Shown here piece after piece: positions 36,836 through 56,592 of a stretch of DNA of 64,000 nt (positions are counted from its first letter, which is position 1; the number at the start of each line of letters is the position of its first letter). The notes beneath the pieces were generated by a model. That model saw nothing but the letters and a program-made list of their open reading frames with translations, had not been told where the DNA came from and did not search any database. The position numbers and the translations under genes are program-made. The DNA comes from Pseudomarimonas arenosa (GTDB lineage Bacteria; Pseudomonadota; Gammaproteobacteria; Xanthomonadales; Xanthomonadaceae). The stretch is from NCBI RefSeq assembly GCF_014841215.1, contig NZ_JACYTR010000019.1, positions 14,177-78,176 on the forward strand, read 5' to 3'.

Positions 36836-38452
36836 CTACCAGAAGTAAATCTGCAACGAGGGGTCGACACGCCGCCGCGGTGGCGCCGCCAGTAGCTCGC
36901 GCTGGCTGGGAAAGTTCTCTGCACTGCGGCGGACGAAATCGTCGATCTCGCGCAGGTCGTAGTACTGCTCGTTCGAATTGGCCGGGCGCAGCTCGGGCGG
37001 GAAACAGCCCATGCCGGCCAGCAGGCAGTACCAGGAAAACACCGGATAGCCCTTGCCCAGACGCTGACTGCCGACCTCCTCGGCAATCCCCTTGCCGGAC
37101 AACCATAGCGTGTACAGCTCTTTCAGCGCATCGGATAGTTCGCCATTGGCGGCGCAGTCGCGCCAGTAAGGGGTGTCGCCGCGCGAGTTGGTCTTGTAAT
37201 GGCTGACGATATAATCACGAGTGCCTTCAAAGTGCTCATTGCTTCGCCGGTTGAACTCGGTGCGCGCCTGTTCCGACAGGTCGCCGCGGCGCAGTTGCTC
37301 GCAGAACATCTGCACCGTGCGTTGAATGAAGAGCAGGGCAGTGGCCTCCAGCGGCTCGATGAAACCCTGCGATAAGCCGACCGCCAGGCAATTGCGGTTC
37401 CAGTGTTCGCTCAGTCGGCCAATGCGCATCTTCAGATGGCGCGCCTCGGTCGGGTCATCGAGCAGGCCCAGGCTCTCACGTAGTTCGCGCTCGGCCTGCT
37501 CGGCGCTGCAATAGGCCGAGCTGTAGACATAGCCGTTGCCGTAGCGCTGGGTCAGCGGAATTTCCCAGCGCCAGCCATGACGCATGGCGATCGAGCGGGT
37601 CTGCGAGGGCAGCTGATCGCCGATCGGCGTCGGTAGGGCGACCGCCGCATCATTGAACAGGTTGTTCTTGAAGCTGATAAACGGGGTGTTCAGGGTCTTC
37701 TGGATCAGTACCGCGGCAAAGCCGGTACAGTCGACAAAGAGGTCCGCTTCGAAGCGTTGACCGTCTTTCATCAGCAGAGCGGCAAGATCCCCAGTGTCAT
37801 GCCGTTCCACCGCCTCGACATGGCATTGTCGGTACTGCACGCCGCGTTCGACCGCCTTTAGGTGCAGAAACTTGCCCAACAGCACCGCGTCGAAATGGTA
37901 GCCATACCAGATATCGAACGGAAAACTCTGCCGCGGCCGCGGTGCCTTGCCCTGTTCGGCCAGCTGGGCGGCGACGAAGAAGCGATCTGGGTGGGCGTAG
38001 ACATCGGCGCCACGCAGGCGCTGGTGCACGTTATGCACGAACTGGGTCAGGGTGAGGTTGTCCAGCATCGATGCGAATGGGTGGAAATAGCGCTCGAAGC
38101 CCGGCTTGCGTGACCAGCCTTCGAAACTGATCCCGCACTTGTAGGTCGCATGACAAGCCGGCATCCACTCGGCCTCTTCGATACCCAGCTGATCGAAGAA
38201 GCCACGCAGCCAGGGCGTCGAGCCTTCGCCGACGCCGATTGTTTCCACGGTTGGCGATTCCAGCACATGCACTTCCACCGGGCTGCCCTTCAGTGCATCG
38301 GCCAGCAACAGCGCGCTCATCCAGCCGGCGCTGCCGCCGCCGACCACGGCGATCCGCCTTATCCCGGTGGCCGCCGGCAACTCGCTGGGCGGCAGCGGCG
38401 AGCGGTACTGGTTGTAGACCGTGGCGGTGGGGCCTTGGGTGGCGATGGGCAT
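36836..38452 (-). CDS. Flavin-dependent tryptophan-halogenase-family protein (PrnA/RebH-like)
   Basis: N-terminal GGGSAGW FAD motif. Halogenase motifs GWxWxIP (HGWRWEIP) and FIEPLE. Confidence 0.75.
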   Translation of the reverse strand: MPIATQGPTATVYNQYRSPLPPSELPAATGIRRIAVVGGGSAGWMSALLLADALKGSPVEVHVLESPTVETIGVGEGSTPWLRGFFDQLGIEEAEWMPACHATYKCGISFEGWSRKPGFERYFHPFASMLDNLTLTQFVHNVHQRLRGADVYAHPDRFFVAAQLAEQGKAPRPRQSFPFDIWYGYHFDAVLLGKFLHLKAVERGVQYRQCHVEAVERHDTGDLAALLMKDGQRFEADLFVDCTGFAAVLIQKTLNTPFISFKNNLFNDAAVALPTPIGDQLPSQTRSIAMRHGWRWEIPLTQRYGNGYVYSSAYCSAEQAERELRESLGLLDDPTEARHLKMRIGRLSEHWNRNCLAVGLSQGFIEPLEATALLFIQRTVQMFCEQLRRGDLSEQARTEFNRRSNEHFEGTRDYIVSHYKTNSRGDTPYWRDCAANGELSDALKELYTLWLSGKGIAEEVGSQRLGKGYPVFSWYCLLAGMGCFPPELRPANSNEQYYDLREIDDFVRRSAENFPSQRELLAAPPRRRVDPSLQIYFW

Positions 38453-38753
38453 TGCTGTATTCCCTGCGAAGCGTCTCGCATTCTGGAGTGGGCTGCGGCG
38501 AGACTCAATGTGTCGCGGGCAGTGGCCGGGTTTGGAAGGAAGGGCAGCCGATTCGGCTGCGCCTCGTCAGGGCTGGCCTTCGATACGCTCAGGCCATCAC
38601 TTCGACTGGCTCAGCCAAGGTCGGATTGCGTACGCTGAGCGCAGTCGAAGCGTGCCGAACCGGGGCCGGCAACGCGCGCGGATAACCAGGCAGACAGGCG
38701 TTGAGTCGTCGGCGCTCTGCGCTGATGTGACATCGGTACGCCCAAGGCGCACC

Positions 38754-39779
38754 CTAATGCGGCCGCAGGCGGAAGCGCTCGCGGTAGTCGGCCGGGGTCA
38801 GGGTAGTGGCGCGCTTGAACAGCTTGCGAAAGCTGGATGAGTCGGAATAGCCGCAGCGTTCGACAATCTCATCGAAGCTGAGGTGGGTGGTTTCCAGCAG
38901 GGCCTTGGCGCGTTCAACCCGCAGGTGCTGGATATGTTCCAGCGGGGTGCTGCCGAGCTGGGCCTTGAAGTGGCGCAGCAGGGAGCGCTCGCTCACCCCG
39001 ACCTGTTCGGCCAGATGTGCCACGCTGAGGCTTTCGTGCAGATTCTTGTTAAGTATCTGCTCGATCCGCTCACCCAGCGAATGGCGCGGTTTTTCCTTCA
39101 GCGCCTGACTGATATAGGGCGCCTGACTTTGTCGATCGGGATCGATCAACAGAATACGCGCGGTCTGCTGGGCCAGGTCTTCGCCGCCGACCCGGGCAAT
39201 GAGCTTGAGCACATAACTCATCACCGAGGAGGTGGCGCCGCAGGTGGTAATCGGGCCATCCTCGACGATCATCTTTTCGATATCGAGCTGGGCGCGCGGA
39301 TAGCGCTCTCGGAACACCGCATCCAGCCACCAGGCGGTGGTCGCACGACGGCCATCGAGCAGGCCGGCCTCGGCGAGCAGGAAGGCGCCACTGCAGGAAC
39401 TGGCCAGCTTTACCCCGCGGCGGAACATGGCGTTCAGCAGGTCGATCTCGGGCTGCAGCTGCTGCATACGGGAAATCAACTCACTGCCGCTGCCATGCAT
39501 GCTGCCGGGCACCAGCAGCACATCCGGATCACTCGGCTCGCAGACCACGCCTTCGATGCGCAGACCGCCCGAGCAGCGCAGCGCGTCCATGCCGCGGGCG
39601 GTGACGATCGAGGTGCGAAAGCGCAGCGGGGTGGCGGGGTCGCGCAGCTCAGCCAGCTTCTGCGCCACCCGCAGCATGTCGGTCGGCCCGGCCAGGCTCG
39701 ACAGCATGGCGCCGTCCAGGGCCAACAGGCCAAGGGTGAATTGACGTTCGCTGCGAGTCGGCGCGGGCATCTGGCTCAT
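38754..39779 (-). CDS. AraC-family transcriptional regulator with an N-terminal DJ-1/PfpI (GlxA-like) domain
   Basis: N-terminal class-I glutamine-amidotransferase-like domain. C-terminal HTH_AraC (SVAHLAEQVGVSERSLLRHF ... FRKLFKRATTLTPADYR). Confidence 0.8.
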   Translation of the reverse strand: MSQMPAPTRSERQFTLGLLALDGAMLSSLAGPTDMLRVAQKLAELRDPATPLRFRTSIVTARGMDALRCSGGLRIEGVVCEPSDPDVLLVPGSMHGSGSELISRMQQLQPEIDLLNAMFRRGVKLASSCSGAFLLAEAGLLDGRRATTAWWLDAVFRERYPRAQLDIEKMIVEDGPITTCGATSSVMSYVLKLIARVGGEDLAQQTARILLIDPDRQSQAPYISQALKEKPRHSLGERIEQILNKNLHESLSVAHLAEQVGVSERSLLRHFKAQLGSTPLEHIQHLRVERAKALLETTHLSFDEIVERCGYSDSSSFRKLFKRATTLTPADYRERFRLRPH

Positions 39780-39828
39780 GGTGCTCAATGGTGCTCCTGT
39801 TTCGGTGCGGCAGGTAGACGGGCTGGTC

Positions 39829-40305
39829 TCAATTCTGTGCGGCACGCGGGCCGTCGAAAGCTTCGTGAATCAGCAGACTGCCGTGCTCATTGGCCAGGCT
39901 CTGATACACGACTGCAGGAACGCCGTAGGCCTGCACTCGGCCATCGCGCAATTCCGGATCATCGCAGCTGCGCAAGGCAACCCGACCACTGTGACCGGTC
40001 GGAAGCAGGGTGGCCGAGGGGGCAATCAGCTCCAGCTCGCCTTGGCTATCGCGGCCGATCAGCCACAGTCCAGCCGGCGGCTCGATGCCACGCGGGCAGA
40101 ACGCATCGCCGGCAATCACCCGCGACTCGCCGAACTGCGGCTGCAGTTCCCAATGCTGATCGAGTGCGTCCAGCGAGGCGGTGTAGTCGATGCCGGGCAC
40201 GTATTGCGGCAGCAGGGATTCGGGGGCTTGAGCTGACACGGTGCTGCTGCTCAGGCTCAGGGCCAGGGTTGCGGCGGTTATCAAGGAAGCAATCACGGTA
40301 CGCAT
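39829..40305 (-). CDS. Predicted secreted hypothetical protein (158 aa)
   Basis: Signal peptide MRTVIASLITAATLALSLSSSTVSAQA. No recognisable domain. Confidence 0.5.
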   Translation of the reverse strand: MRTVIASLITAATLALSLSSSTVSAQAPESLLPQYVPGIDYTASLDALDQHWELQPQFGESRVIAGDAFCPRGIEPPAGLWLIGRDSQGELELIAPSATLLPTGHSGRVALRSCDDPELRDGRVQAYGVPAVVYQSLANEHGSLLIHEAFDGPRAAQN

Positions 40306-40639
40306 CTTAGGTTCTCCGGGTCGCCAACAGTTGGCGGAAGTAGATTGCTACAGGCGATTATCGCCATGCAGTGGCGAATCGGACTCTGAAGGGGCGAATT
40401 CCGCCATGTTTGGCTGGCGTTTAGAAAGCCCGTCCCCCCAGTCGCCCAATGACGCGACGCGACGGGCCGCCTATCCTTGTGCAGCCAGTGTGAAGTTGTT
40501 TGCCGCCGTCGGCAGTCAGGGGAGCGGGGAGCCTGCCCAACCACGGCTGAATTCTGACTAGGCCAGAAGTCACAGGTGCCGGTGTCTGGCGTCCTGTCAT
40601 TAACTCAGGGTTTGCGCGCCGAGGCGCGAGGGGGAAGCG

Positions 40640-41275
40640 ATGGACCTGTTCTTGCAAATCGTTACGTCGTTTCCCACGGTGATCTTCACGGTGATTCTGG
40701 GTGTTGGGCTTTGCCTGATGCTGTTGACCATGCTGGGCATGGTCGATATCGAGGGACTGAACTTCGACATCGGCTCAGACGGCGATGGTGCCGGCGGCGT
40801 GTCGGCCTTGCTGATGAAGCTGGGCCTGGATGGCATGCCGCTGATGTTGATCGTGCTCGGCGTTGGTTTGATCGGTTTCGTTCTGAGCTTCCTGGCCGAT
40901 TATTGGTTCCTGCGAGAGGTCGAAGCCGACAACTTCAGGCTGCTGTGGATGGTTCTGGCTGTAGTGATTGCATTCTTCCTGTCATTGCCGCTGACCGGTC
41001 TGCTGCTGTTTCCGCTGAAGTCAGTATTCCGCGAGCAGCCGGTGATCGACAGCGTGTCCTTGCTCGGCAAGTTGGCCATCGTGCGTAGCCCCTTGGTCGA
41101 TGCCAAACAAGGAATGGCCAACCTGGATGACGGCGGTGCGGGCCTGATTCTTCAGGTGCGCAGTCGTGATCAGACCTTCGAGCGCGGTCAGCGCGTGGTG
41201 CTGGTTGAGTACATCGAGGCGAGCAACGCCTATTGGGTGATCGGCGAGCAATCGCTGGACCCCACGGACCACTGA
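40640..41275 (+). CDS. YqiJ/NfeD-like inner membrane protein (OB-fold C-terminus)
   Basis: N-terminal multi-TM region and C-terminal soluble beta-rich domain. Same size as E. coli YqiJ (about 210 aa). Directly upstream of a flotillin gene, as in yqiJK. Confidence 0.55.
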   Translation: MDLFLQIVTSFPTVIFTVILGVGLCLMLLTMLGMVDIEGLNFDIGSDGDGAGGVSALLMKLGLDGMPLMLIVLGVGLIGFVLSFLADYWFLREVEADNFRLLWMVLAVVIAFFLSLPLTGLLLFPLKSVFREQPVIDSVSLLGKLAIVRSPLVDAKQGMANLDDGGAGLILQVRSRDQTFERGQRVVLVEYIEASNAYWVIGEQSLDPTDH

Positions 41276-41334
41276 TCGAATTTCTTGTCGTTCAACGTTC
41301 TTAGTAGTTTCAGGCCGGCAAATCTGGCCCTTTA

Positions 41335-43389
41335 TTGGAGTCAAGCATGGACATGACCACTTTGATGCTCATCATTACCGTCGGCGGCGTGATCGTTGCC
41401 GGCGTGTTGAGTCTCTTTGCCATCCTGAAGATGTTCTACATCAAGGTGCCGCAGGGTACCGCGCTGATCGTCAACGATCTGACCGCCACGCCGAAGGTGC
41501 ATTTCACCGGTGCCCTGGTCTGGCCGGTGATCCACAAAAAGGAGTTCATGAAGATCTCCTTGATCACCCTGGAGGTCGATCGGCGCGGCAAGGATGGCCT
41601 GATCTGCCGCGACAACATGCGCGCCGATATCACCGTTGCCTTCTATCTGCGGGTGAATGAGACCCAGCAGGACGTGCTGAAGGTGGCCAAAGCCATCGGC
41701 GTCGATCGCGCCTCGGAAAAGAACGCGGTCAATGAACTGTTCAACGCCAAGTTCAGTGAGGCGCTGAAGACGGTCGGCAAGAAGATCGACTTCGTTGCCT
41801 TGTTCGAGAACCGGCAGGAATTCCGTGACCGCATCATCGAGGTGATCGGCAACGATTTGAACGGTTACATCCTGGAAGACGTGGCGATCGATTATCTGGA
41901 GCAGACGCCGAAGTCCTCGCTGGATCCGAACAATATTCTCGATGCCGAAGGCATTCGCAAGATCACCGAGCTCACCGCCACCCAGAACGTGGTGACCAAT
42001 GAGTTGGAGCGCAACAAGGAACTGGCGATCCAGAAGAAGAACGTCGAGACCAAGGAATCGATGCTGGCATTGGCGCGTCAGCAGGCCGATGCCGAAGCCA
42101 AGCAGCAGCGTGAGATCGCCACCATCCAGGCGCGCGAATCGGCCGAGACCCTGCGCGTGCAGGAAGAAGAGCGGCTGAAGGCCGAACAGGCGCGCATCGC
42201 CACCCAGGAACAGCTCGATATCCGTGAGCAGAATCGGATGCGTGAAGTTGAAGTGGCTGAGCAGAACCGCCAGCGCGCCGTGGTGATCGAGATCGAAAAG
42301 GTCGCCCGCGCCAAGGCACTGGAAGAAGTCGCCCGCGAACGCGAAGTCGAACTGCAGCGGATCGAGAAAGAGCGCGCCCTGGAAGAGCAGCGCAAGGAAA
42401 TTGCCAATGTCATCCGCGAGCGGGTGGTGGTCGAAAAATCGGTGGCAGTGGAAGAAGAGCGGATCAAGGAAGTGCGCGAAATCTCCGAAGCCGAGCGCCT
42501 GAAGCAGGTCACCATTCTTGATGCCCAGGCCAAGGCAGAGGAAGAGCTGGTTAAGCAGGTCAAGCAGGCCGAAGCCGACGAAGCCAAGGCCAAGCACAAG
42601 TCGGTCGAGATCACCATCCTGGCTCAGGCCGAACTGGAAGCCGCCGGCAAACAGGCCGAAGCCAAGCGCAAGCTGGCCGAAGGTATCGAGGCCGAGCGTG
42701 CCGCGCCGGGCCTGGCCGATGCGCGGGTGCGCGAAGTGACCGCGGCGGCGATGGAAAAGGAAGGTCTGGCCAAGGCCAAGGTGATCGCCGAGCAAATGGC
42801 GGCCGAGGCGCGCGGCGAGCAGGACAAAGGTGTGGCCCAGGCCAATGTGATCGAGGCGCAGGCCGAAGCGCGGCGCAAGGAAGGTCTGGCCGAGGCCAAG
42901 GTGCTGGAAGAAAAGCTGAGCGCGCAGGCGCGGGGCGAGGAACAGGTCGCGCTGACCAAGGCCAAGGCCACCCAGGAGGTCGGCAATGCCGAGGCGGCGG
43001 TGCTGCTGGCCAAGTTCGAAGCCGAGGCCAAGGGTCTGGCGGAGAAGTTCGGCTCGCTGGAAGCGCTCAGCGACAAGGCGCGCGCCCACGAAGAGTTCCG
43101 CATGCAGCTGGAAAAGACCTTCGAGCAGACCGTGCGCGGCATCGAGGCGAACGAAAAGATCGCCCGCGAACAGGCCGATGTGCTGGCCGCCGCGCTCAGC
43201 AAGGCCAAGGTCGACATCGTGTCCGGCGGCGGCGACTACTTCAACAGCCTGGCCCGCGGCATGGGCATGGGCAAGATGGTCGAGGGCGTGACCGGCTCCA
43301 GTCCGATCGTCGGTGACCTGCTGCAGCGCTTTCTGGGCAACACCCCGAAGAAGCCGGAAGCGCCGTCGGCTAACGATACCGAGCAGTAA
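41335..43389 (+). CDS. Flotillin/SPFH (band-7) family protein, YqiK-like
   Basis: N-terminal TM. SPFH domain. Long Ala/Glu/Lys/Arg coiled-coil region (EA-repeat-like) typical of flotillins. Confidence 0.85.
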   Translation: MESSMDMTTLMLIITVGGVIVAGVLSLFAILKMFYIKVPQGTALIVNDLTATPKVHFTGALVWPVIHKKEFMKISLITLEVDRRGKDGLICRDNMRADITVAFYLRVNETQQDVLKVAKAIGVDRASEKNAVNELFNAKFSEALKTVGKKIDFVALFENRQEFRDRIIEVIGNDLNGYILEDVAIDYLEQTPKSSLDPNNILDAEGIRKITELTATQNVVTNELERNKELAIQKKNVETKESMLALARQQADAEAKQQREIATIQARESAETLRVQEEERLKAEQARIATQEQLDIREQNRMREVEVAEQNRQRAVVIEIEKVARAKALEEVAREREVELQRIEKERALEEQRKEIANVIRERVVVEKSVAVEEERIKEVREISEAERLKQVTILDAQAKAEEELVKQVKQAEADEAKAKHKSVEITILAQAELEAAGKQAEAKRKLAEGIEAERAAPGLADARVREVTAAAMEKEGLAKAKVIAEQMAAEARGEQDKGVAQANVIEAQAEARRKEGLAEAKVLEEKLSAQARGEEQVALTKAKATQEVGNAEAAVLLAKFEAEAKGLAEKFGSLEALSDKARAHEEFRMQLEKTFEQTVRGIEANEKIAREQADVLAAALSKAKVDIVSGGGDYFNSLARGMGMGKMVEGVTGSSPIVGDLLQRFLGNTPKKPEAPSANDTEQ

Positions 43390-43397
43390 TGCTTAAA

Positions 43398-43425
43398 GCC
43401 CCTCTCCCCCGCCAGGGGGAGGGGC
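43398..43425. repeat. REP-like GC palindrome GCCCCTCTCCCCCGCCAGGGGGAGGGGC
   Basis: Imperfect 11 to 12-bp-stem hairpin in the flotillin/giant-gene intergenic region. The same core motif recurs within each unit of the 55988-56550 tandem array. Confidence 0.45.
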
Positions 43426-43465
43426 TAGAGCTTGAGCAAGTCCGGACCACGGAGTGCTACCCCGC

Positions 43466-46400
43466 ATGGCCAACAATGAGAAATCTGCAGCCACTGAACA
43501 GGTCGATACCGCGATCACCGATCAGGCGGTGGCCGAGGGTGGCGCCTATGAGGTTTTGCGCAAGCGACTGAGTGATCAAGGCAGTCAGCTGAAAGTAGCG
43601 GCCGAGGCGCTGAATGCTGAGCGGCTGGCAGCCTTCGGCAGCAGTGAGCTGAAGGTGATCGGCCGGCTGCGGGTGCGCACCGAACACAATTGCGTGCCGC
43701 GCGATCTGGTCCAGGTCGGGGAGTGTCTGCTGTTCGGCTACAACGTGTTCCTCGGGCTGAAAAAGGAAACCCAGGTCGACGACGTATTTGCCCTGTACAA
43801 ACTGGTTGAGGGGACAGAGGGTTTCGATGTCGAGCCGCAGGCGCTGAAGGGCAGTTTCCTCGATCAGGCCAGCTTCGTCGCCGATTTCAAGGAGCTGTAC
43901 GCCTACTACAAGAACACCCGGCTGCTGCAACTGGTACGCAAGGATGAGTGGCTGCTGGCCAGTTTCCAGATCGGCGATCGGATCAGTGATGTGCGGGTGT
44001 TCCGCTGGAGCGTCTCAGCCGATGGTCAAACTATTCGTTATGTGGACAACCGTGGCGAACGCGATATCGCCCTGCCACCGAACTACGACTTCGAGTGGAC
44101 CCGCTGCGGCCGTGAGCATGCGGTCGAGGGGCGTCATCCGCATCTGAATATTCTCGATACGGTATTCGTCGAAACCGTGGGTGGCGACCTCACGGTCAAG
44201 ATCGAGAACAACACCAATGATGGCCTGGGTATCTATCGCGAGCCGGTCGATGACCAGACCCAGAGTCTGGACGATGCCAAGGTTGATTTCGCCAAGGTCG
44301 GCAGCCTGATCTTGCTGCGCATCCTGCCCTACCGCGAAACCCAGTCGCGCTATCTGGCCTACAACACCCTGACCCGCGAAGTTCGGCGGATCGATGCCAT
44401 CGGTCAGGCCTGCGTGCAATTGCCGGAGGACCACGGCATCGTCTTTCCCGGCGGCTATCTGCTGCAGAACGGCGAATACCGCCAGTTCGAGCAGTCAATG
44501 GCTGGCATGCGCTTCAAGCGGATGATCCGCTCGCCCAATGGCGAGGACGTGCTGTACATCTTCTACGAGCCCGAGGACGGTCGCTTTGCCCTGTTCACCT
44601 ACAACCTGATCGAGCGCAAGCTGCAGCCACCGCTGTTCGGTCACGGTTATGCCCGCTATGACGATGGGCGGATCGTGTTGTTCAGCATGCAGGGCAGTGA
44701 GGCAACCCGCGTGCATCCGATGCAGATCTGGCAGACCGCCTTCTGCAGTGATGAGTTCGCCGCCCAGCAGCCGGCCAAGCAGGGCTTTGCCGGCCGCATC
44801 GGCAATGCCGAATTGGTGCGTGGTGTTTCCAATCTGCTCAATCTCTGCCGTGAGATTGAGGCGGAGAAGGTCTCCCAGGCGCGCTATGAGCGGCTGATCG
44901 CCGACGCCCGCAAGCTGTTCGATCTGCATCACTGGCTGGCCGAGTCGCACTGTGAACAGGCCGCTGCTGTGGTGCGCAGCATCGCCCAGTGCAGCGAGCT
45001 GGTGATCGACGAGTTCGTCAAGGTGGAGGCAATTCGCGCATCCGCCGAGCGCGCCTTGGCCGAGGCGCGTACCCTGCAATCGCAGCTCAAGCGCGAATGC
45101 CTGCCGGAACGCTGCGAGGCGATCGCCGATTTTGTCACCGCCCTTAACAGGCTGTCACGACAGCGCGGTCATCTGCTCAGTATTCGTGAGTTGCGCTATA
45201 TGGATGTGGCGGCCATCGATGCCATGGGCGGCGATCTACAGGCCTGGCATGACGAGCTGTCCAGGTCCACTGCCGCGTTTCTCGACCGGCCCGAAGCCCT
45301 GGCTGACCTCGCGGCGCAACTCGATGCTCAGGAGAAGCAGCTCGGCATGGCGGAGAACGCCGCCAAGTTGCGTGAGCTGGTCGAAGCGCTGAAGCAAAGC
45401 GCGGCCGATCTCGATCTGCTCAGCCAGCTGCTGGCCGGGTTGCCGGTGGATGACGCCGAACAGCGTACCCGCATCGTCGAGGCGATCTCGGCCCTGTATG
45501 CGCGGCTGAACCAGATCCGTGCCCGCGCCGAGGCCAAGCGCAAGCAGCTTGGCAGCGCCGAGGCGGTGGCCCAGTTCGGTGCCCAGTTCCATCTGTTCTC
45601 GCAATCGGTGTCGGCAGCTCTGGCCGATGCCCGCGACCCCGAGGCCTGCGACGATGCGTTGGCCAGGGTGTTGGTGCAGCTGGAAGGGCTTGAGGGCCAG
45701 TTCGGCGAACACGAGCAGTTCCTGCAGGACATCCTGGCCAAGCGCGAGGAAGTGCTGGAGGCGTTCGAGTCGCACAAGCAGACCTTGCTCGATGAACGTC
45801 AGCGCCGCGCCCAGGGCCTGCACGATGCCGCGGTGCGCATCATCGATGGTCTGCCGCGGCGAACCGAGAAGTTCAGTGGCGCTGATGAGCTGAACAGTTT
45901 CTTTGCCGGTGACGCCCTGATCCTCAAGCTGCGCGACCTGGTCGAGCGCCTGCGTGGCTTCAAAGACAGCGTCAAGGCCGACGATATCGAAGCGCGGCTG
46001 AAAGCCTGTCGCGACCAGGCCGCGCGTCGGCTGCGTGATGCCAGCGAGCTGTTCGAGGACGGTGGCAATCTGATCCGGCTGGGTCGGCACCGCTTCAGTG
46101 TCAACCGGCAGGAACTCGATCTCACCCTGATTCCACGCGGCGAGCGACTCTGCCTGCATCTCACCGGCACCGATTTCTTCCAGCCGATTCAGGCTGACCA
46201 GCTCGATTCGATGCGGCCCTTCTGGGAGGCCTCGCTGCCCTCGGAGTCGGCCGAGCTGTCGCGTGCCGAATACTTAGCTGGTGCTTTCCTCGAGGCGGCC
46301 GAGCGTGGCGAGGAGGGGCTCGATGCCGGTCTGCTCATTCCGGGCAAGGATCAGGCCTCGGCGCTGGAGCAAGCCTTGCGCAAGTTCGCTGCCGCGCGTT

Positions 46401-48652
46401 ATCGCGAAGGCTATGAGAAAGGCTTGCACGATCATGATGCAGCACGGATTCTGGCCGCCTGGGCGCCACTGCGACAAACCGCCGGCCTACTGCGTTTTGC
46501 GCCTGGCGCGCGCGCCCTGGCCATGCATGCCTGGAAGGCGCTGCGCGAGGGCATCGGCAAGCGCTGGCCGGAACGGGCGCGGGCGGCGGCCCGGCTGCGG
46601 GCACAGTTCGACGATCGAGCGGCCTGCGAACAATGGGTTAAGGAGATCGCCACCGACTTGCTGGCGCCTGCTGAAGCGCTGGATTTTGCCAAGGACCAAG
46701 CCCGGCAGGCAGCGGCCTACCTGTTCGAGGTGCTGGCCGAGCCGCATCCGCAGTTCGCCTTCAGTCGCCCCGCGCACGACCTGCGCGATGCCCTGCAAAG
46801 GGCTCTGGCCAATGATGATGGCTGGCGAAATCTGTTGCAGAGCGCCGCCGAACTGCAGGATTTGCCCAGGCTGCAACGCGAATTGATCCTCCATGCATTG
46901 AACGCCTTGTTGCGTCGTCAGCCCAAGGCCGGCGAGCCGCGCTATGTCGACGAGGCCGCAGCCCTGATTCTGCTCGCCGATCACTTGCCGAATCGTTTCA
47001 GCGAGGCCGACCTCAGTGTCGAGGTGCAGGGCTTGCTATCTGCGCATCAGCGCATTCAGGAAGGACGACTGCCAATTGCGGTGGATGACCTGGACGCACG
47101 ACTGGCCCACCACCGCCAGCACTATCTGCCGCAGCTGCAGCGTTTCCAGTCGATACGGCATGCCGAACTGGAAACGGCACGCGAACGCATGCGGCTGGGC
47201 GAATTCAAACCGCGGCCGCTGACCTCGTTCGTGCGCAATCGGCTTATTGATCAGGTCTACCTGCCGCTGATTGGCGACAACCTGGCCAAGCAGATGGGCA
47301 GTGTCGGCGAGGGCAAGCGCTCCGATCTGATGGGCCTGTTGATGCTGATCTCGCCGCCTGGCTACGGCAAGACCACCTTGATGGAGTACACCGCGCACCA
47401 GCTCGGTCTGATCTTCATGAAGATCAATGGGCCGTCGCTGGGTCATGAAGTGCGCTCGCTGGATCCGGCGCAGGCGCCCGATGCCAATGCCCGGCAGGAG
47501 CTGGAAAAGCTCAATCTGGCGCTGGAAATGGGCAATAACGTGATGCTGTATGTCGACGACATCCAGCACACCCATCCGGAGTTCCTGCAGAAGTTCATCT
47601 CGCTCTGCGATGCCACCCGCCGCATCGAAGGCGTGTACGGCGGCCGCACCAAGACCTATGACATGCGCGGCAAGAAGTTCTGCGTGGTGATGGCCGGCAA
47701 CCCGTATACCGAATCCGGCGACTTGTTCCGCATTCCCGACATGCTGGCCAACCGCGCCGACGTGTACAACCTGGGTGACGTGCTGGGCGGCATGCAGGAG
47801 GCCTTCCTGCTCAGCTATATCGAGAACAGTCTGACCTCGAGCCCGGTGCTGGCGCCGCTGGCCACCCGTGGCATCGAGGATCTGTACAAGCTGGTCGACA
47901 AGATTGCCGGCAAGGGTTTTTCTGCCAGCGCCTTGGCGCATAGCTATAGCGCCGCCGAACTCAGCGATATGGAGGCCGTGCTGAGTCGCCTGATGAAACT
48001 GCGTGATGTGGTGTTCAAGGTCAATCAGCAATACATCGCCAGTGCCGCCCAGGCCGAGGCCTACCGCACCGAGCCGGCATTCAAGCTGCAGGGCAGCTAC
48101 CGCAATATGAACAAGCTGGCGGAAAAGGTGTCGGCGGTGATGAATGAGGCCGAGCTCGATCAGTTGGTGCGTGATCACTATCTCGGTGAATCGCAGCTGC
48201 TCACCCATGGCGCCGAGGAGAATCTGCTCAAGCTCGGTGAGCTGCTCGGCACGCAAAAGGCTGAAGACAAGACGCGCTGGGAGCAGATCAAGGCCGACTT
48301 CCGCCGGCTGAAGGCGATCGGCGGCGCCGATTCTGACACCGGCACACGGGTGGTGGCCCAGCTGCACGATCTGGTTCAGGGGGTGAACTCGCTCAAGGCC
48401 AGCGAGCCGGTCGAAGCAGCGGCGAGTCCGCCCTGGTCGCACCTTTCCGATCTGCTGGAACGGATTGTCAACGAACAAACCTTGGCGCGTAACTTCAATC
48501 GCGATGCCGCCACCGACAGCGCCATGTTCTTGAGCGGTCTGCGCAATGCCCTGGAACTTGGCTTCAAGCCCCTGGTCGAGGCGGCCAAGACTCGCAGCGA
48601 ACAGCAGGATGTGTTGATCGAGTTGCTGAAGCGACTGACTAAGAAGCCGTGA
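43466..48652 (+). CDS. Giant (about 1728 aa) multidomain protein with a C-proximal MoxR/AAA_5-like P-loop ATPase module; function unknown
   Basis: Walker A LISPPGYGKTTL and Walker B VMLYVDDIQH. MoxR-like sensor stretch VVMAGNPYTESGDLFRIPDMLANRADVY, around residue 1290-1450. Preceded by about 1250 aa of mixed beta (N-terminal about 420 aa) and long alpha-helical/coiled-coil sequence. Confidence 0.7.
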   Translation: MANNEKSAATEQVDTAITDQAVAEGGAYEVLRKRLSDQGSQLKVAAEALNAERLAAFGSSELKVIGRLRVRTEHNCVPRDLVQVGECLLFGYNVFLGLKKETQVDDVFALYKLVEGTEGFDVEPQALKGSFLDQASFVADFKELYAYYKNTRLLQLVRKDEWLLASFQIGDRISDVRVFRWSVSADGQTIRYVDNRGERDIALPPNYDFEWTRCGREHAVEGRHPHLNILDTVFVETVGGDLTVKIENNTNDGLGIYREPVDDQTQSLDDAKVDFAKVGSLILLRILPYRETQSRYLAYNTLTREVRRIDAIGQACVQLPEDHGIVFPGGYLLQNGEYRQFEQSMAGMRFKRMIRSPNGEDVLYIFYEPEDGRFALFTYNLIERKLQPPLFGHGYARYDDGRIVLFSMQGSEATRVHPMQIWQTAFCSDEFAAQQPAKQGFAGRIGNAELVRGVSNLLNLCREIEAEKVSQARYERLIADARKLFDLHHWLAESHCEQAAAVVRSIAQCSELVIDEFVKVEAIRASAERALAEARTLQSQLKRECLPERCEAIADFVTALNRLSRQRGHLLSIRELRYMDVAAIDAMGGDLQAWHDELSRSTAAFLDRPEALADLAAQLDAQEKQLGMAENAAKLRELVEALKQSAADLDLLSQLLAGLPVDDAEQRTRIVEAISALYARLNQIRARAEAKRKQLGSAEAVAQFGAQFHLFSQSVSAALADARDPEACDDALARVLVQLEGLEGQFGEHEQFLQDILAKREEVLEAFESHKQTLLDERQRRAQGLHDAAVRIIDGLPRRTEKFSGADELNSFFAGDALILKLRDLVERLRGFKDSVKADDIEARLKACRDQAARRLRDASELFEDGGNLIRLGRHRFSVNRQELDLTLIPRGERLCLHLTGTDFFQPIQADQLDSMRPFWEASLPSESAELSRAEYLAGAFLEAAERGEEGLDAGLLIPGKDQASALEQALRKFAAARYREGYEKGLHDHDAARILAAWAPLRQTAGLLRFAPGARALAMHAWKALREGIGKRWPERARAAARLRAQFDDRAACEQWVKEIATDLLAPAEALDFAKDQARQAAAYLFEVLAEPHPQFAFSRPAHDLRDALQRALANDDGWRNLLQSAAELQDLPRLQRELILHALNALLRRQPKAGEPRYVDEAAALILLADHLPNRFSEADLSVEVQGLLSAHQRIQEGRLPIAVDDLDARLAHHRQHYLPQLQRFQSIRHAELETARERMRLGEFKPRPLTSFVRNRLIDQVYLPLIGDNLAKQMGSVGEGKRSDLMGLLMLISPPGYGKTTLMEYTAHQLGLIFMKINGPSLGHEVRSLDPAQAPDANARQELEKLNLALEMGNNVMLYVDDIQHTHPEFLQKFISLCDATRRIEGVYGGRTKTYDMRGKKFCVVMAGNPYTESGDLFRIPDMLANRADVYNLGDVLGGMQEAFLLSYIENSLTSSPVLAPLATRGIEDLYKLVDKIAGKGFSASALAHSYSAAELSDMEAVLSRLMKLRDVVFKVNQQYIASAAQAEAYRTEPAFKLQGSYRNMNKLAEKVSAVMNEAELDQLVRDHYLGESQLLTHGAEENLLKLGELLGTQKAEDKTRWEQIKADFRRLKAIGGADSDTGTRVVAQLHDLVQGVNSLKASEPVEAAASPPWSHLSDLLERIVNEQTLARNFNRDAATDSAMFLSGLRNALELGFKPLVEAAKTRSEQQDVLIELLKRLTKKP

Positions 48653-48818
48653 TTGGTGATTCGGGATTCGGGATTCGGGCGGCGCGCCGCAAGGTGGCTC
48701 GAAGCCATCGATTTTGGCGCGGACAGCAGGCGCGTCCCGGCCTCGCCCCCAAGCTAGCCCGTCCATGGCACAATCGGAGTGTGGCTGGGATTGGCCGGGT
48801 ACCGACTGGGCGCACTCG

Positions 48819-49853
48819 ATGAAGACCACACCGCACTTGCTTGACGAGCTGGTCAAACTGACCTCGATCCGCGATGCCGAGCTGCTCGAATACAGCCTGC
48901 TGCGCACTATTCAGGAGATCCTCTCGCCGACCGTGCTGTCGCTGTTCCGGCTCAGCGCCAACGGGCAGCCGTGCTATCAGATGGTCTGCGATGCTGAGCA
49001 CGGGCCGCGGGTGGTGGCCGAGCCGGTGGTCAGCGCGCGCACCCTGGAGGTGGCGGCGGAATGCATGGGATTGCGCCAGGGCGTGCGGCGCCGACTGGAT
49101 GACGGCCAGGAGCTGTCGGTGTATCCGGTGGTCGAGCTGCGCGGCTTTACCACCTACCTGGAAGTGGTCGACCGGTTTGGCGACGCCAAGGAGGACGCCC
49201 GACTGATCGATGGCTTCCTGCGCTTCTATGAAAACTACTGTGGCCTGCTCGACTACTCACAGCGTGATCAGTTGACCGGCCTGATGAATCGCAAGACCTT
49301 CGATGAGAGCGTGTTCAAACTGTTCAGCAGCGGTGATCGTTTTCAACTCGACGCCGCAAGCCCACGGGCCAAGGACGATCGTCGAATCGGCGCGCATCGC
49401 GGCGAGTTCTGGCTCGGCATGGTCGATATCGATCACTTCAAGCGCATCAACGATTCGTTTGGTCACTTGTATGGCGATGAGGTCTTGCTGCTGGCCTCGC
49501 AGGTAATGCAGCGCGGTTTTCGCGATACCGACCTGCTCTTTCGCTTCGGTGGCGAGGAGTTTGTCATCATCACCCAGAACGTCGATCGCGACGGCGCCCT
49601 GCATGTGTTCGAGCGTCTGCGGCAATCGATCGAATCATTCCGCTTTCCGCAGGTAGGTCAGGTCACCATCAGTATCGGGCTGGTGCAACTGGTGCCGGGC
49701 AAGCTGACGCCGATCCTGCTCGATCAGGCCGACAAGGCGCTGTACTACGCCAAGCAGCATGGTCGCAATCAGGTGGCTGTCTATCAGGATCTGGTCGAGC
49801 GCGGTGACATCGACGAAACCCAGCACACCCAGGGTTCGGTCGACCTGTTCTAG
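48819..49853 (+). CDS. Diguanylate cyclase (GGDEF domain) with an N-terminal sensory domain
   Basis: GGEEF active-site motif (RFGGEEFVII). RxxD I-site-like context. About 150-aa N-terminal putative GAF-like domain. Confidence 0.85.
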   Translation: MKTTPHLLDELVKLTSIRDAELLEYSLLRTIQEILSPTVLSLFRLSANGQPCYQMVCDAEHGPRVVAEPVVSARTLEVAAECMGLRQGVRRRLDDGQELSVYPVVELRGFTTYLEVVDRFGDAKEDARLIDGFLRFYENYCGLLDYSQRDQLTGLMNRKTFDESVFKLFSSGDRFQLDAASPRAKDDRRIGAHRGEFWLGMVDIDHFKRINDSFGHLYGDEVLLLASQVMQRGFRDTDLLFRFGGEEFVIITQNVDRDGALHVFERLRQSIESFRFPQVGQVTISIGLVQLVPGKLTPILLDQADKALYYAKQHGRNQVAVYQDLVERGDIDETQHTQGSVDLF

Positions 49854-49884
49854 CCCGGCTATTTCATGAGGGGACGCGGATGCC

Positions 49885-50487
49885 ATGGCGGAGGCGATCG
49901 AGCAAATTCTGAACTACTGGTTTGGCGATCACGCTGATGACGTGACCATAGCCAAGTCGCAGGCTTCACTGTGGTGGGGCAAGAATGCCGAAGTCGATGC
50001 CGACATTGGGCAACGCTTCGGAGCCCTGGTGCCGGATGCCGAGGCGGGGCGGCTGAGTGATTGGCAAACTTCGCCGCGCGGCCTGTTGGCCCTGATCCTG
50101 CTCACTGATCAATTTCCGCGCAATGTCTACCGTGACCAGGCGATGGCTTTCCATTTTGATCCGGTGGCGCGCTGGTTCTGCCTGGAGGGTCTGATGCACG
50201 GCGTCGATCGCCGCCTGCGGCCGATCCAGCGCGCCTTCTTCTACCTGCCGCTGGAACACGCCGAGGATCTCGCACTGCAGAATCGCAGTGTCGAACTGTT
50301 CGAAGCCCTGGTCAGCGAGGTGCCGGCCGCCGCGCAGTCAACCTTCAAGGGCTACCTCGACTTCGCCCGCCAGCACCAGCGCATCATTCAGCGCTTTGGC
50401 CGATTCCCACATCGGAACGCCGTGTTAGGCAGGGCGTCGACCGAGCAGGAGCTGGATTTTCTGCAACAGCCCGGTTCCTCGTTCTGA
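49885..50487 (+). CDS. DUF924-family protein
   Basis: 200-aa soluble protein with a DUF924-like profile (WWGKN ... DQFPRN). Confidence 0.6.
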   Translation: MAEAIEQILNYWFGDHADDVTIAKSQASLWWGKNAEVDADIGQRFGALVPDAEAGRLSDWQTSPRGLLALILLTDQFPRNVYRDQAMAFHFDPVARWFCLEGLMHGVDRRLRPIQRAFFYLPLEHAEDLALQNRSVELFEALVSEVPAAAQSTFKGYLDFARQHQRIIQRFGRFPHRNAVLGRASTEQELDFLQQPGSSF

Positions 50488-50494
50488 GCAGGAG

Positions 50495-50992
50495 TCAGGC
50501 CAGACTGGCGTTGGCCTCATAGTCGATATGTTCAAGTCCCAGGCCTTCCATCGCCTGATCGAATTCCTGGCTGCGGTCTTCATCCATATCGAGCACCAGC
50601 AACACTTCGCCTTGCTCGATTCGCTGCTCGAAGCGCCGATGCACCTCATTCGGTACGCCAGCACCGGCCAGGGCCGCCGACCAACCGCCGACGGTGGCGC
50701 CGAGCAGGGTGATCAGGCCGGCGCCGACGATGGTCAGACCCAGACCGGGCACCGCCATTGCTGCCAGCCCAGCTACCAGGCCCATGGCGCCACCGCCCAA
50801 TGTGCCGCGCGCCATCGCGGGACGAATGTCGGTCGGTGAGCTTTCCTTCAATTCTGCTGGAAGCTTGTCCAATGATTCACTGCGTGTGATCAGGCCGATA
50901 TCGCGATCCTCGGCGCCGAGTTGCCGGGCGGCCTGCACGCAGCGCACGCCATCGGCCAGCGAACGGGTGGCGTAGACATGGCGAATCTTCAT
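50495..50992 (-). CDS. Small membrane protein with glycine-zipper TM segments (DUF1269-like)
   Basis: Central Gly/Ala-rich TM hairpin (GGGAMGLVAGLAAMAVPGLGLTIVGAGLITLLGATVGG). Family name uncertain. Confidence 0.4.
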   Translation of the reverse strand: MKIRHVYATRSLADGVRCVQAARQLGAEDRDIGLITRSESLDKLPAELKESSPTDIRPAMARGTLGGGAMGLVAGLAAMAVPGLGLTIVGAGLITLLGATVGGWSAALAGAGVPNEVHRRFEQRIEQGEVLLVLDMDEDRSQEFDQAMEGLGLEHIDYEANASLA

Positions 50993-51362
50993 GCGGGTCT
51001 CCTTTCTTCGTTTGGTTCAACAGGGCGCTGAGCGCCGTCCATCCCGGAGCTCGTCAGCGCAAGCAGTTGCGGCAAAGCCGCATCGCCTTGGAAGGGAAGC
51101 AAACAAACAATTGAGTGTTCGATTCCTTTGGCGCGCCATCCGTGGCTCGCGACTGCAGCTGCTGAAAGCACTCAGCAGCCAGCGCAAGCCTATCGCACCC
51201 AGAGTCAAGCCAACGGCAAGCTGATTGTTAATAACATGCCGTTCAACCTAACTGCGGTTGTGGTCTTGGTTGGACGAGGCTGCGCCGCCGATCGATCACG
51301 GTTGCATACCCGAGTACACTGAGTACCGGCGACGGAGTAGGTCGCGGCTGCAGGGAGGCGAC

Positions 51363-52106
51363 ATGAACCTCCAATCCAGCGTTTGGTGGCTTCTGCTGTG
51401 CAGCAGTTTGGCCACCGCAAGTGCGATCAGCGCCGAGTCGCGCGAGTATGCGGCAGGGCGGCGCGCCATGCTGGACGAAATCGCCGCCGATGCCCGCCGC
51501 ACCGCGTTTGATACAGGCCGCAGTCGATTCTCCGAGCCCGTCATGCAGGCCATGCAGCGCGTGCCGCGACATGCCTTCGTACCCGAGCAGTACCGCACGG
51601 TGGCCTATGCCAATCGACCACTGCCGATCGGCCATGGCCAGACCATTTCGCAGCCCTATATCGTCGCCTTGATGAGCGACCTGCTCGATATCGAGCCCGG
51701 CGATAGGGTGCTGGAAATCGGTACCGGATCCGGCTACCAGGCTGCAGTCCTGGCTGAACTCGATGCTAAGGTGTTCAGTATCGAGATCATAGAGCCGTTG
51801 GCCAAGCAGGCGGCCGAGCGCCTGCCTGAACTTGGTTACCGCAGTATCGAGCTGCGCCATGCCGACGGCTACTACGGTTGGCAGGAAGCGGCGCCCTTCG
51901 ATGCCATCATCGTTACTGCGGCAGCCAATTCAGTGCCGCCGCCGCTGATTCGCCAGCTCAAACCGGGCGGCGTACTGGTGATCCCGGTCGGCGCACCGTT
52001 CCTGACCCAGAGTCTGATCAAGGTGGAGAAGACCGCGGCGGGCGAGTTGCACACGCAAAGAATTCTGCCGGTGCGCTTCGTACCCCTGACCGGTGAGCGC
52101 GAGTGA
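51363..52106 (+). CDS. pcm: Protein-L-isoaspartate(D-aspartate) O-methyltransferase (Pcm) with a predicted signal peptide
   Basis: PCMT motifs (VLEIGTGSGYQAAVLAEL, region II/III). N-terminal MNLQSSVWWLLLCSSLATASAISA looks like a secretion signal. ATG 51363 preceded by AGGGAGG. Confidence 0.85.
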   Translation: MNLQSSVWWLLLCSSLATASAISAESREYAAGRRAMLDEIAADARRTAFDTGRSRFSEPVMQAMQRVPRHAFVPEQYRTVAYANRPLPIGHGQTISQPYIVALMSDLLDIEPGDRVLEIGTGSGYQAAVLAELDAKVFSIEIIEPLAKQAAERLPELGYRSIELRHADGYYGWQEAAPFDAIIVTAAANSVPPPLIRQLKPGGVLVIPVGAPFLTQSLIKVEKTAAGELHTQRILPVRFVPLTGERE

Positions 52107-52114
52107 ACTGAATC

Positions 52115-54508
52115 ATGGACAGCTCGCCGGCCCGACCTGCGCAGCCGATCGGTCTGCTGCTGTCGGTTGCCTGTATCGCAGCGGCCGCCCTGGCCTATCA
52201 AATCGTGCTGATGCGCTTCTATGCCGTGCTGCATTGGCAGTGGTTCGCAGCGATGATCGTCAGCCTGGCCCTGCTCGGTCATGGTTTGAGCGGCAGCCTG
52301 CTGGCCTTGCGCAGCGCCGCCTTCGGGCGCTGTTTTGACTGGCTGTACCCGTGGTTGGCGGTGGCCTTTGCGCTGAGCATGCCGCTCGCCTTTGCGATCG
52401 CCCAGCGCTGGCCGTTCAACGGCCTGGAGCTGATCTGGGACCCGGCTCAGCTGGCTTGGTTGGCGCTGAGTTATCTCTGCCTTAGCCTGCCGTTTGCCTG
52501 CGCCGCGGCCTGCTTCGGGTTGGCCTTTATTCGCTATGGTGCGGCGATCCCGCGGCTGTATGCCGCCGACCTGTTCGGCGCTGGTCTCGGCGCCCTGGGC
52601 GTGCTGTGGCTGATGCAGGCCTTGCCCCTACGCCACTGGCTGCCTGCGCTCGGGCTGCTGGCGGTGTTCGGCGCCTGGCTGGGCAGTGCCGGCCTGTCGA
52701 TCGCGCGGCGCAGCAGCCTGTTGGCGCTGGGTCTGCTGCTCCTGCCGCCATCGTGGACCGCGGTGGAACCCAATCCCTACAAGGGGCTGAGCGCCACGTT
52801 GCGACTGCCGGGCGCCGAGCGGCTCGAGCGTCAAGCCGGGCCGCTCGGTGTACTGGATCTGCTGGCCAGTCCCGAGGTGCCGCTGCGTCAGGTGGCCGGC
52901 CTGTCGATGCTGGCTGACCGCGAGCCGGTGGCTCAGCTGGGCCTGTTCATTGATGGCGAGGGGCCGAGTCCGATCAGTCAGGTGGTCGATGTCGATCGAC
53001 TGGGCTACCTGGAGCAAACCACCGCCGCCTTGCCGTATCAGTTACTCAGCGCGCCCAGCGTATTGATCCTCGGCGCAGGCGGCGGCGATGCCGGCTGGCA
53101 GGCCTTACGCGGCGGTGCACGCTCGCTGCAGCTGGTGGAACCCAATGCTCAGTTGGCGGCCTGGCTGGATACGCCTGGCTCGCCGGCTTACTCGGCGCTG
53201 ATCGCTGACCTGCGAGTGCAGCGCCGGGTGGCTGATCCGCGTGCCGTGCTCGATCGGGCCGAGCGGCGCTACGATCTGATCGTGTTGCCGCCGCCCGATA
53301 GTCCGATCGGCGCTGGCGGCGGGGTGCAGGCGGCCTCGGACACCTTTCTTTACACCATCGAGGCGCTGCGCTCGGCCTGGCATGGGCTGCAACCGAACGG
53401 CATGATCAGTATCAGCCGTTGGGAGCAAAGCCCGCCGCGGGCCAGTCTGAAGCTGATCGCCACTGCCGTGGCAGCGTTGCGCGATCTCGGTGTCAGCGAT
53501 CCAGCGGCTCATCTGCTGCTGATCCGCGATTGGCAGACCAGCGTACTGCTGATCGGGCGTCGGCCCTTCAGCGCCGAGCAGCAGGCCGCGGCACAATCGT
53601 TTTGCCGCCGCTACGCCTTCGAGACGGTTCATCTGGCCGGTCTGGACCTGTCTGATCTGCAATCGAACGATAGGCTAAGGGAGGCGGTGCGGGCTGTGCT
53701 GGGCGCAGATGCCGAGCGGTTCATCGCCGAGTATGCGTTCGATATTCGCCCGGCCAAGGATGAGCGGCCGTTCTTTCACAACTACTTTCGCTGGCAGACC
53801 CTGCCGGTACTATGGCGGCTGCGCGCCCAGGGCGGCGCGACCCTGCTCGATTCGGGCTATCTGTTGGTGCTGGCGGGCCTGGTCCAGGCCAGCCTGCTGG
53901 CCGCATTGCTGATCTTGCTGCCACTGCGCTGGTTGCCGCGCGCCGCCCGTGCATCGACCTCGGCACTGCGCCGCTGGCCGGCCGCCGCGTACTTCTTCGC
54001 CCTGGGCCTCGGCTTCTTATTCTTCGAGATCGCCGCCCTGTCGCGCTACACGCTGTATCTTGGTCAGCCGCTGTGGTCGGCCTCCCTGGTTCTGGCCGGG
54101 CTGTTGGGGTTTGCCGGTGTGGGCAGTGCCACTGCCCAACGTTGGACGACCCGACCGATGGCGCGGCGTATCGCGGCGTTAAGTGCCGCCGTTGCCATCC
54201 TGGCGTTCGAGTGGCTGCATCCGGCCTGGTTTGCCCTCAGCGCGAACTGGCCGGTGTGGGCGCGCGCGCTCAGCGGTGGCCTGTTGCTGGCGCCCTGCGC
54301 CTTTCTGCTCGGCCTGCCGTTTCCGCTCGGCCTCAGCCGCCTCGCCACGCATGCCCCGGCCCTGGTGCCCTGGGCCTGGGGCATCAATGGCGTGGCCTCG
54401 GTGATCAGTGCCCTGCTGGCCGTGGTGCTGGCCATGGCCTGGGGCTATTCGGTGATCATGCTGATTGCCGCTGGCTTGTATGTGCTGGCGGCGTGGTCGC
54501 GGTTTTGA
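52115..54508 (+). CDS. Polytopic membrane protein with a central spermidine-synthase-like (aminopropyltransferase/methyltransferase-fold) domain
   Basis: About 797 aa. Multi-TM N- and C-terminal blocks flank a soluble region resembling the spermine/spermidine synthase fold (VLILGAGGGD ... DLIVLPPPDSP). Confidence 0.5.
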   Translation: MDSSPARPAQPIGLLLSVACIAAAALAYQIVLMRFYAVLHWQWFAAMIVSLALLGHGLSGSLLALRSAAFGRCFDWLYPWLAVAFALSMPLAFAIAQRWPFNGLELIWDPAQLAWLALSYLCLSLPFACAAACFGLAFIRYGAAIPRLYAADLFGAGLGALGVLWLMQALPLRHWLPALGLLAVFGAWLGSAGLSIARRSSLLALGLLLLPPSWTAVEPNPYKGLSATLRLPGAERLERQAGPLGVLDLLASPEVPLRQVAGLSMLADREPVAQLGLFIDGEGPSPISQVVDVDRLGYLEQTTAALPYQLLSAPSVLILGAGGGDAGWQALRGGARSLQLVEPNAQLAAWLDTPGSPAYSALIADLRVQRRVADPRAVLDRAERRYDLIVLPPPDSPIGAGGGVQAASDTFLYTIEALRSAWHGLQPNGMISISRWEQSPPRASLKLIATAVAALRDLGVSDPAAHLLLIRDWQTSVLLIGRRPFSAEQQAAAQSFCRRYAFETVHLAGLDLSDLQSNDRLREAVRAVLGADAERFIAEYAFDIRPAKDERPFFHNYFRWQTLPVLWRLRAQGGATLLDSGYLLVLAGLVQASLLAALLILLPLRWLPRAARASTSALRRWPAAAYFFALGLGFLFFEIAALSRYTLYLGQPLWSASLVLAGLLGFAGVGSATAQRWTTRPMARRIAALSAAVAILAFEWLHPAWFALSANWPVWARALSGGLLLAPCAFLLGLPFPLGLSRLATHAPALVPWAWGINGVASVISALLAVVLAMAWGYSVIMLIAAGLYVLAAWSRF

Positions 54509-56550: not shown

Positions 56551-56592
56551 ATTCCCGAACGCTCTCTGTTCTCAACCCCTGCATCGACAAGT

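Follow-up and report, generated by a model that had tools for sequence, protein, structure and literature searches.

Mutants of Pseudomonas aeruginosa in bacA and bacB have biofilm and virulence defects. The genes PA3732-PA3729 were named the biofilm-associated cluster (bac) by Mace in 2008, with products of 23 kDa for PA3730 and 76 kDa for PA3729 and with accumulation of PA3731 upon osmotic shock (PMC2587700), and Wallart in 2024 reported from reverse transcription-polymerase chain reaction that bacA to bacF form one six-gene operon and that mutation of bacA raises BacB to BacF 6- to 13-fold (PMC10948618). Phage infection induces PA3728-PA3732 (PMC12041424), and PaFlo3 (PA14_16180, the product of bacD) is paired with a protein termed "short NfeD" (PMC13086221). 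Abbreviated operons made up of a flotillin, a YqiJ-like protein and sometimes an ATPase are described as more widespread by Ravi et al. in 2024 (PMC11237479). Here we analyze a locus of Pseudomarimonas arenosa (Lysobacteraceae) on a 64,000-nucleotide stretch of contig NZ_JACYTR010000019.1 (positions 14,177 to 78,176 of the forward strand; hereafter the window, by whose own numbering positions are given), in which three genes that we call C, D and E occupy 40640-48652. With a probability of roughly 70%, these genes represent an abbreviated Bac-type module, namely the part of the P. aeruginosa envelope-stress operon that bacC, bacD and bacE form as its core, acting as a proposed membrane scaffold and its remodeler.

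The locus and its conservation

Four open reading frames on the plus strand span 40640-49853. Gene C (40640-41275, 211 aa) encodes a YqiJ/short-NfeD-like inner-membrane protein homologous to BacC (PA3730), gene D (41347-43389, 680 aa from its ATG) a flotillin-type SPFH protein homologous to BacD (PA3729, PaFlo3), and gene E (43466-48652, 1728 aa) a cytoplasmic giant protein homologous to BacE (PA3728), which is annotated as "DNA repair ATPase" and is 100% identical to a 1728-aa NCBI protein of P. arenosa (P0001). The fourth reading frame (48819-49853, 344 aa) encodes a GGDEF protein and is a neighbor, not a conserved member. The gaps measure 71 bp between C and D, 76 bp between D and E and 166 bp between E and the GGDEF gene. 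An alternative TTG start of D lies upstream at 41335, from which the first gap is 59 bp, and the chosen ATG aligns with residue 1 of the P. aeruginosa homologue. A first-pass annotation of this DNA had listed four co-directional genes with gaps of 60, about 75 and 167 bp, which these measurements bear out.

Protein C aligns with BacC at 41% identity over 209 aa (tblastn, E-value 1e-37), and proteins D and E are 74% and 62% identical to BacD and BacE, respectively. A one-genome-per-species scan returned at least 528 relatives of E, and 80 loci with E identities of 54-64% were analyzed, mostly from Gammaproteobacteria with a few from Burkholderiales and Longimicrobium; synteny is counted over those loci where the extent of the contig allows the test. 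D lies directly 5' of E on the same strand in 77 of 77 loci and C lies 5' of D in 74 of 74, so that homologues of the giant gene are syntenic with SPFH and NfeD-like genes, as the first-pass annotation had predicted, and the arrangement is far beyond chance. The gene order is constant across orders of Gammaproteobacteria. In P. aeruginosa, the neighborhood of the E homologue reads DUF2170, PspA, proteins of 213, 688 and 1746 aa, PLD, YaeQ, recJ and an M4 protease, a run that is PA3732-PA3727, next to recJ/lasB. The first-pass annotation knew of no described function for such an arrangement; the C-D-E arrangement itself has been described already, as bacCDE and within the abbreviated operons (PMC11237479).

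Beyond the core, a DUF2170-PspA pair precedes C in 44 of 72 loci, and a PLD gene lies within 3 kb 3' of E in 30 of 69. Searches with tblastn for BacA (DUF2170/CesT-Tir-like), BacB (PspA) and BacF (PLD) gave no match anywhere in the 64-kb window, and since the DUF2170-PspA dyad is missing from it, the P. arenosa locus is an abbreviated form. At a locus of Pseudomonas sp. NUPR-001, a PspA homologue with 47% identity to BacB (L080:14981-15682) was found 3' of E rather than 5' of C, giving the order C-D-E-PspA, without DUF2170.

Upstream of C is a 334-bp intergenic region (40306-40639) that presumably holds the promoter of the C-D-E unit. On its far side lies a divergent minus-strand reading frame of 158 aa (39829-40305) with a signal-peptide-like N-terminus, and beyond it an AraC/DJ-1 regulator; the unit therefore begins at C. 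No sigma-70-like site was reported in the 334-bp region. For the sigma-54 consensus (TGGCACG-N4-TTGCW), the window has no match of at least 8/12 upstream of C, and the 350 bp before the first operon gene at L001 and about 75 other loci, P. aeruginosa included, have none of at least 10/12.

Proteins C and D

Pfam and NCBIfam failed on C and D, so profile comparison with YqiJ and YqiK of Escherichia coli was used instead. For C, no Pfam or NCBIfam family scored above cutoff and PDB searches likewise gave no useful match. The profile of its family (A3, 26 homologues) matches YqiJ with an hhalign probability of 90.5% (E-value 1.4e-6) in an alignment that takes in the C-terminal region, at a low identity of 15% and with no PDB profile match beside it; this region may be an NfeD-type OB-fold domain. 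Hydropathy places three hydrophobic segments in C, followed by a soluble C-terminal part of about 80 aa; C is the YqiJ/YuaF-like protein with three transmembrane segments, encoded 5' of the flotillin, by which a Bac-type operon is recognized.

For D, the Pfam families Band_7 and Flot do not reach an E-value of 0.01 and PDB searches gave no useful match. The profile of its family (A2) nevertheless matches YqiK with an hhalign probability of 99.9% (E-value 1.7e-32), in an alignment of 405 columns that takes in the SPFH region. This profile match is unambiguous, and D is, as judged from its sequence, an SPFH/flotillin-type protein, in which the SPFH domain is combined with one N-terminal hydrophobic segment, serving as a transmembrane anchor, and with a long coiled coil rich in Glu and Ala. 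The earlier description of C and D as a yqiJ-yqiK-like pair accordingly stands. Band_7 was detected in only one of the 27 D homologues of A2, with no match at an E-value of 0.01 in the other 26, and domain-based censuses of SPFH proteins will overlook this flotillin subfamily.

The giant protein E

Protein E has no transmembrane segment by hydropathy. Its Pfam matches are PF12458 (DUF3686, E-value 2.2e-201), PF25472 (DUF7902, E-value 6e-22) and weak hits to AAA and AAA_5, and the claim that an AAA+ core is its sole recognizable element does not hold. Grouping at 50% identity divides the family of its N-terminal domain, which extends down to about 31% identity, into 742 clusters, and most full-length members have about 1500-2000 aa. 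A full-text literature search for "DUF3686" returned no paper.

An AlphaFold2 model of residues 1-1199 (m8042e899df19; mean pLDDT 82.9) begins with a long helix (residues 13-57), followed by an all-beta part (63-423), very long helices (429-862), a small beta domain (869-907) and a helical domain to about residue 1170. The all-beta part is a beta-propeller (residues ~60-425, 43643-44740) that forms the core of DUF3686. The very long helices make up a helical/coiled-coil region (residues ~429-862, 44750-46051) that includes DUF7902, with PF25472 matching residues 614-698 of the reading frame, or about 610-694 in the 1728-aa numbering. The small beta domain and its following helices (residues ~869-1010, 46070-46495) carry the motifs RHRFSVN at 874 and GYEKG-HDHDA at 982, which are invariant in alignments A1 and A5; this part may serve in catalysis or in binding. 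In fuller form the motifs read RHRFSVN-Q-LDL and F-A-x-x-R-Y-x-x-G-Y-x-K-G-x-H-D-x-D-A, and no Pfam family covers residues 869-1010.

The AAA+ ATPase module follows at residues ~1285-1600 (47318-48265), with a Walker A motif GYGKTT at 1299, a Walker B motif LYVDD at 1361-1365 and a sensor-1 region AGNPY at about 1410-1414; the end of Walker B is an invariant Asp-Asp rather than Asp-Glu. A DUF3686 propeller N-terminal to an AAA+ module, as found in AlphaFold2 models, is the layout of the giant AAA+ protein of a Bac-type operon, and E has it. Searches of the PDB by sequence and by profile gave P-loop-level matches only. With Foldseek, the N-terminal 1199 residues returned no specific structural relative, the hits being generic beta-propellers or propeller-plus-helical proteins (E-values 1e-6 to 1e-3, TM score about 0.1). 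The AAA+ core ranked RuvB above NorQ, and the clade assignment is weak.

Variable genes downstream of E

The gene immediately following E varies among loci, being a rhomboid-family gene, a gene for a helical protein that we call X2, a PLD gene directly, a zinc-ribbon protein gene, PspA (once) or nothing recognizable, and many loci, P. arenosa included, keep E without any 3' enzyme. The rhomboid-family gene, of about 185 codons, follows E in 21 of the 80 loci (among them L006:15217-15783; L007, L009, L011-L015, L017, L019, L026, L027, L039, L043, L049, L056, L058, L061, L075 and L077), often overlapping the stop codon of E by 4 bp and usually standing before the PLD gene. Its product matches PF01694 with an E-value of 1.7e-18, and the GASG and His motifs are visible.

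X2, an all-helical protein of 205-260 aa with an invariant GWxGRLLGRD-like motif, is encoded directly 3' of E in 22 of the 80 loci (for example L030:15274-16050, L072:15349-16056 and L076:15274-15957, with 19 others), in Lysobacter, Stenotrophomonas, Luteimonas and Thermomonas. Neither Pfam nor NCBIfam has a family for it, and it does not occur in the P. arenosa window. X2 was considered as a relative of PspA; there is no relationship (hhalign probability 0.1%). In excerpts from the bac and Psp literature, PLD is given as the only extra gene (PMC11237479), and the coupling of rhomboid and X2 genes to E goes unmentioned there.

A proposed scaffold and its remodeler

We infer that C-D-E most likely provides a membrane scaffold for envelope stress, together with a remodeler that is driven by ATP. 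C and D would assemble an SPFH scaffold at the cytoplasmic face of the inner membrane, like other NfeD/SPFH pairs, on which soluble E would dock via its propeller and coiled-coil regions. E would oligomerize into a ring through its AAA+ domain and spend ATP on assembling, remodeling or unloading both scaffold and clients when the membrane is under stress, and may act also on PspA, an ESCRT-III-like protein, where this is encoded alongside. The variable 3' gene, whether PLD, a rhomboid protease, the helical protein of about 230 aa or none, would supply a lipid- or protein-directed membrane output.

Several points weigh against this account. The role given to E and the physical contact among C, D and E are what we infer, the ATPase activity of E is assumed, with a Walker B motif that ends in Asp-Asp rather than Asp-Glu, and the AAA+ clade of E is ambiguous. 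The window is without PspA, and the sigma-54 (RpoN) control proposed in the literature for bacA of P. aeruginosa has no counterpart at the P. arenosa locus. In PA14, moreover, deletion of paFlo3 (bacD) lowers biofilm by only about 20%, a mild phenotype in the conditions used (PMC13086221).

A more specific version is tentative, and we hold it possible rather than probable. Under it, E is dedicated to assembling or disassembling the flotillin scaffold at the expense of ATP, and works with interchangeable, translationally coupled membrane effectors encoded 3' of it (PLD, an active rhomboid protease or X2); P. arenosa would have no linked effector or PspA, and transcription might read through into the cyclase gene. 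To our knowledge, no such ATP-driven assembly or disassembly partner is known for any SPFH protein.

It is unlikely, though still the most probable of the competing explanations, that E is instead a MoxR-like chaperone that matures or inserts the 3' membrane enzyme (PLD or rhomboid) or other membrane complexes, with C and D as a mere platform. Many loci, the P. arenosa locus among them, retain E where no such enzyme follows it, and the weak clade assignment of the AAA+ core counts against a MoxR-like protein as well. A chaperone of this class would also call for a partner with a VWA domain and MIDAS motif, and no VWA family occurs among the Pfam matches of the window genes at 36836-41275, 41335-50992 and 51243-54508, nor at L001, L082 or L084.

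Defense systems often contain large ATPases and effectors of the PLD family, and an anti-phage or conflict system could likewise consist of a giant NTPase and membrane partners, with a PLD effector in some genomes. The induction of PA3728-PA3732 on phage infection (PMC12041424) agrees with such a role, but equally suits a general Psp-type envelope-stress response. No PADLOC model matched apart from a P-loop fragment hit to IetA (E-value 0.0055). Unlike variable defense islands, the P. aeruginosa protein cluster, with 3222 member sequences, has a constant housekeeping neighborhood, with thrC on one side and recJ/lasB on the other, and the order of the genes is stable from one gammaproteobacterial order to the next, which makes a defense function improbable.

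The neighboring cyclase gene and remaining alternatives

The first-pass annotation had joined all four genes into a flotillin-anchored, ATP-driven machine coupled through the downstream cyclase to cyclic di-GMP (c-di-GMP) signaling. The cyclase of the window looks catalytically competent from its motifs: its GGDEF domain (PF00990, E-value 2.8e-34; TIGR00254, E-value 2.4e-39) is intact, with GGEEF at residues 244-248 and an RxxD I-site, RDTD, at 235-238. The protein is soluble and cytoplasmic, and Pfam has no family for its N-terminal ~190 aa. We compared this N-terminal domain with the conserved genes that follow E at other loci, a match to which would have rescued the c-di-GMP idea, and found no homology. 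The gene is co-directional with E, and the 166-bp gap holds no terminator by pattern scan and folds no better than its shuffles (z -0.73); because the gap has no terminator-like structure, read-through from E into the GGDEF gene is possible in P. arenosa. Just past the stop codon of E, this spacer contains three tandem copies of GATTCGG (48659-48679).

Across the relatives, the predicted four-gene order holds for C-D-E but not for the GGDEF gene. Only one of 69 loci (L018, P. linyingensis) has a plus-strand GGDEF gene within 1.5 kb of E, and three of 69 have one within 3 kb, and any GGDEF gene occurs in the ±10 kb flanks of only eight of 80. At L018 the GGDEF gene sits 76 bp after E, which favors the proposed coupling, but its cyclase has a membrane N-terminus unrelated to that of the window. 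The nine matches in 1.8 Mb of flanks amount to about one per 200 kb, which is about the usual density of GGDEF genes in Pseudomonas genomes and in these bacteria. In the closest relative (L082, 84% nucleotide identity across the locus), about 830 bp with a minus-strand gene for a 155-aa secreted protein intervene between E and the orthologous GGDEF gene, whose product is likewise 344 aa long, and a second, minus-strand CHASE3-GAF-GGDEF gene stands between this orthologue and a DUF924 gene; in P. salicorniae, a TetR gene follows E. The DUF924 gene of the window (49885-50487, plus strand; PF06041, E-value 1.3e-64), a fifth co-directional gene 31 bp 3' of the GGDEF gene, is absent in all 80 related loci. 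The GGDEF and DUF924 genes are separate neighbors, and the cyclase is adjacent by chance. Since its adjacency is non-conserved and interrupted, the c-di-GMP link is local and recent and is not a property of the C-D-E system. Of the proposed machine, the conserved C-D-E module remains, whereas the tie to c-di-GMP as a conserved feature is largely refuted, and a four-gene operon of this kind is about as improbable as the defense system.

The reading of E as a DNA repair ATPase, which draws on the NCBI and Pfam names ("DNA repair ATPase", "ATPase involved in DNA repair"), is very improbable, given that domain and PDB searches found no nuclease, helicase or DNA-binding domain in E, that its invariant neighbors are membrane proteins and that its likeness to RuvB is confined to the generic AAA+ fold (E-value about 1e-3).

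Flanking genes

Further genes surround the locus. A gene at 52115-54508 (plus strand) encodes a 797-aa polytopic membrane protein with about 10 hydrophobic segments and no Pfam or NCBIfam match, the central part of which aligns with E. coli spermidine synthase (BLASTP, E-value 1e-4, 25% identity) across the GGGDG and D-x-x-DP-IGPG motifs. A PCMT-type methyltransferase gene (51258-52106, plus strand) ends 8 bp before it. Ravi et al. linked PspA operons to membrane spermidine-synthase-like proteins (PMC11237479); the gene seen here is 2.3 kb off the locus and was not found at other loci. On the minus strand, the flanks at 54534-60343 and 36836-38452 encode two flavoenzymes of the tryptophan-halogenase family, together with a radical-SAM protein and a protein of 797 aa whose similarity to LodA/GoxA (CTQ oxidase) is faint. 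A similar pair of halogenase and radical-SAM genes occurs in L082, and these genes may form a small modification or natural-product cluster.

Significance and comparison with known systems

At least 528 bacterial species carry the C-D-E core, which in P. aeruginosa and Stenotrophomonas belongs to the core genome. In P. aeruginosa, both envelope stress and phage infection elicit a response of the whole operon. The P. arenosa locus is nothing new in kind. In it the three-gene core persists without a linked PspA, PLD or other effector, which argues that flotillin, NfeD-like protein and ATPase constitute the functional unit. Two misleading labels are corrected here, namely the name "DNA repair ATPase" for E and the supposed link to c-di-GMP, and the system remains of interest for how E works biochemically and for its variable 3' effectors.

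Among systems with AAA+ proteins, the MoxR-class maturases (NorQ/NorD, CbbQ/CbbO and RavA/ViaA) differ from E, in which propeller and coiled coil take up about 1280 residues before the core and the Walker B motif has DD. Vps4/ESCRT-III and PspF-PspA offer an analogy only: in the full operons an AAA+ gene lies beside a gene for a polymer of the ESCRT-III superfamily (PspA), but E is not a homologue of Vps4 or PspF by any search, and the window has no PspA. The yqiJ-yqiK genes of E. coli and yuaF-floT of Bacillus subtilis share with C-D the form of a two-gene membrane pair, with D as a clear homologue of YqiK and C alike to YqiJ in topology and probably in its C-terminal domain. In E. coli, however, no giant ATPase gene lies downstream, where sibD/ibsD are found instead, and YqiK has 553 aa as compared with the 680 aa of D, which is too divergent for Pfam Band_7 or Flot. 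The closest likeness is to bacABCDEF of P. aeruginosa, where the orthologues of C, D and E agree in order and orientation, while the P. arenosa locus lacks bacA, bacB and bacF and has a divergent gene for a secreted protein on its upstream side and the GGDEF gene on its downstream side. Finally, with the abbreviated operons of flotillin, YqiJ/YuaF and AAA+ genes, as described by Ravi et al. (PMC11237479), the AlphaFold2 models agree, and the P. arenosa locus shows no essential difference from them.

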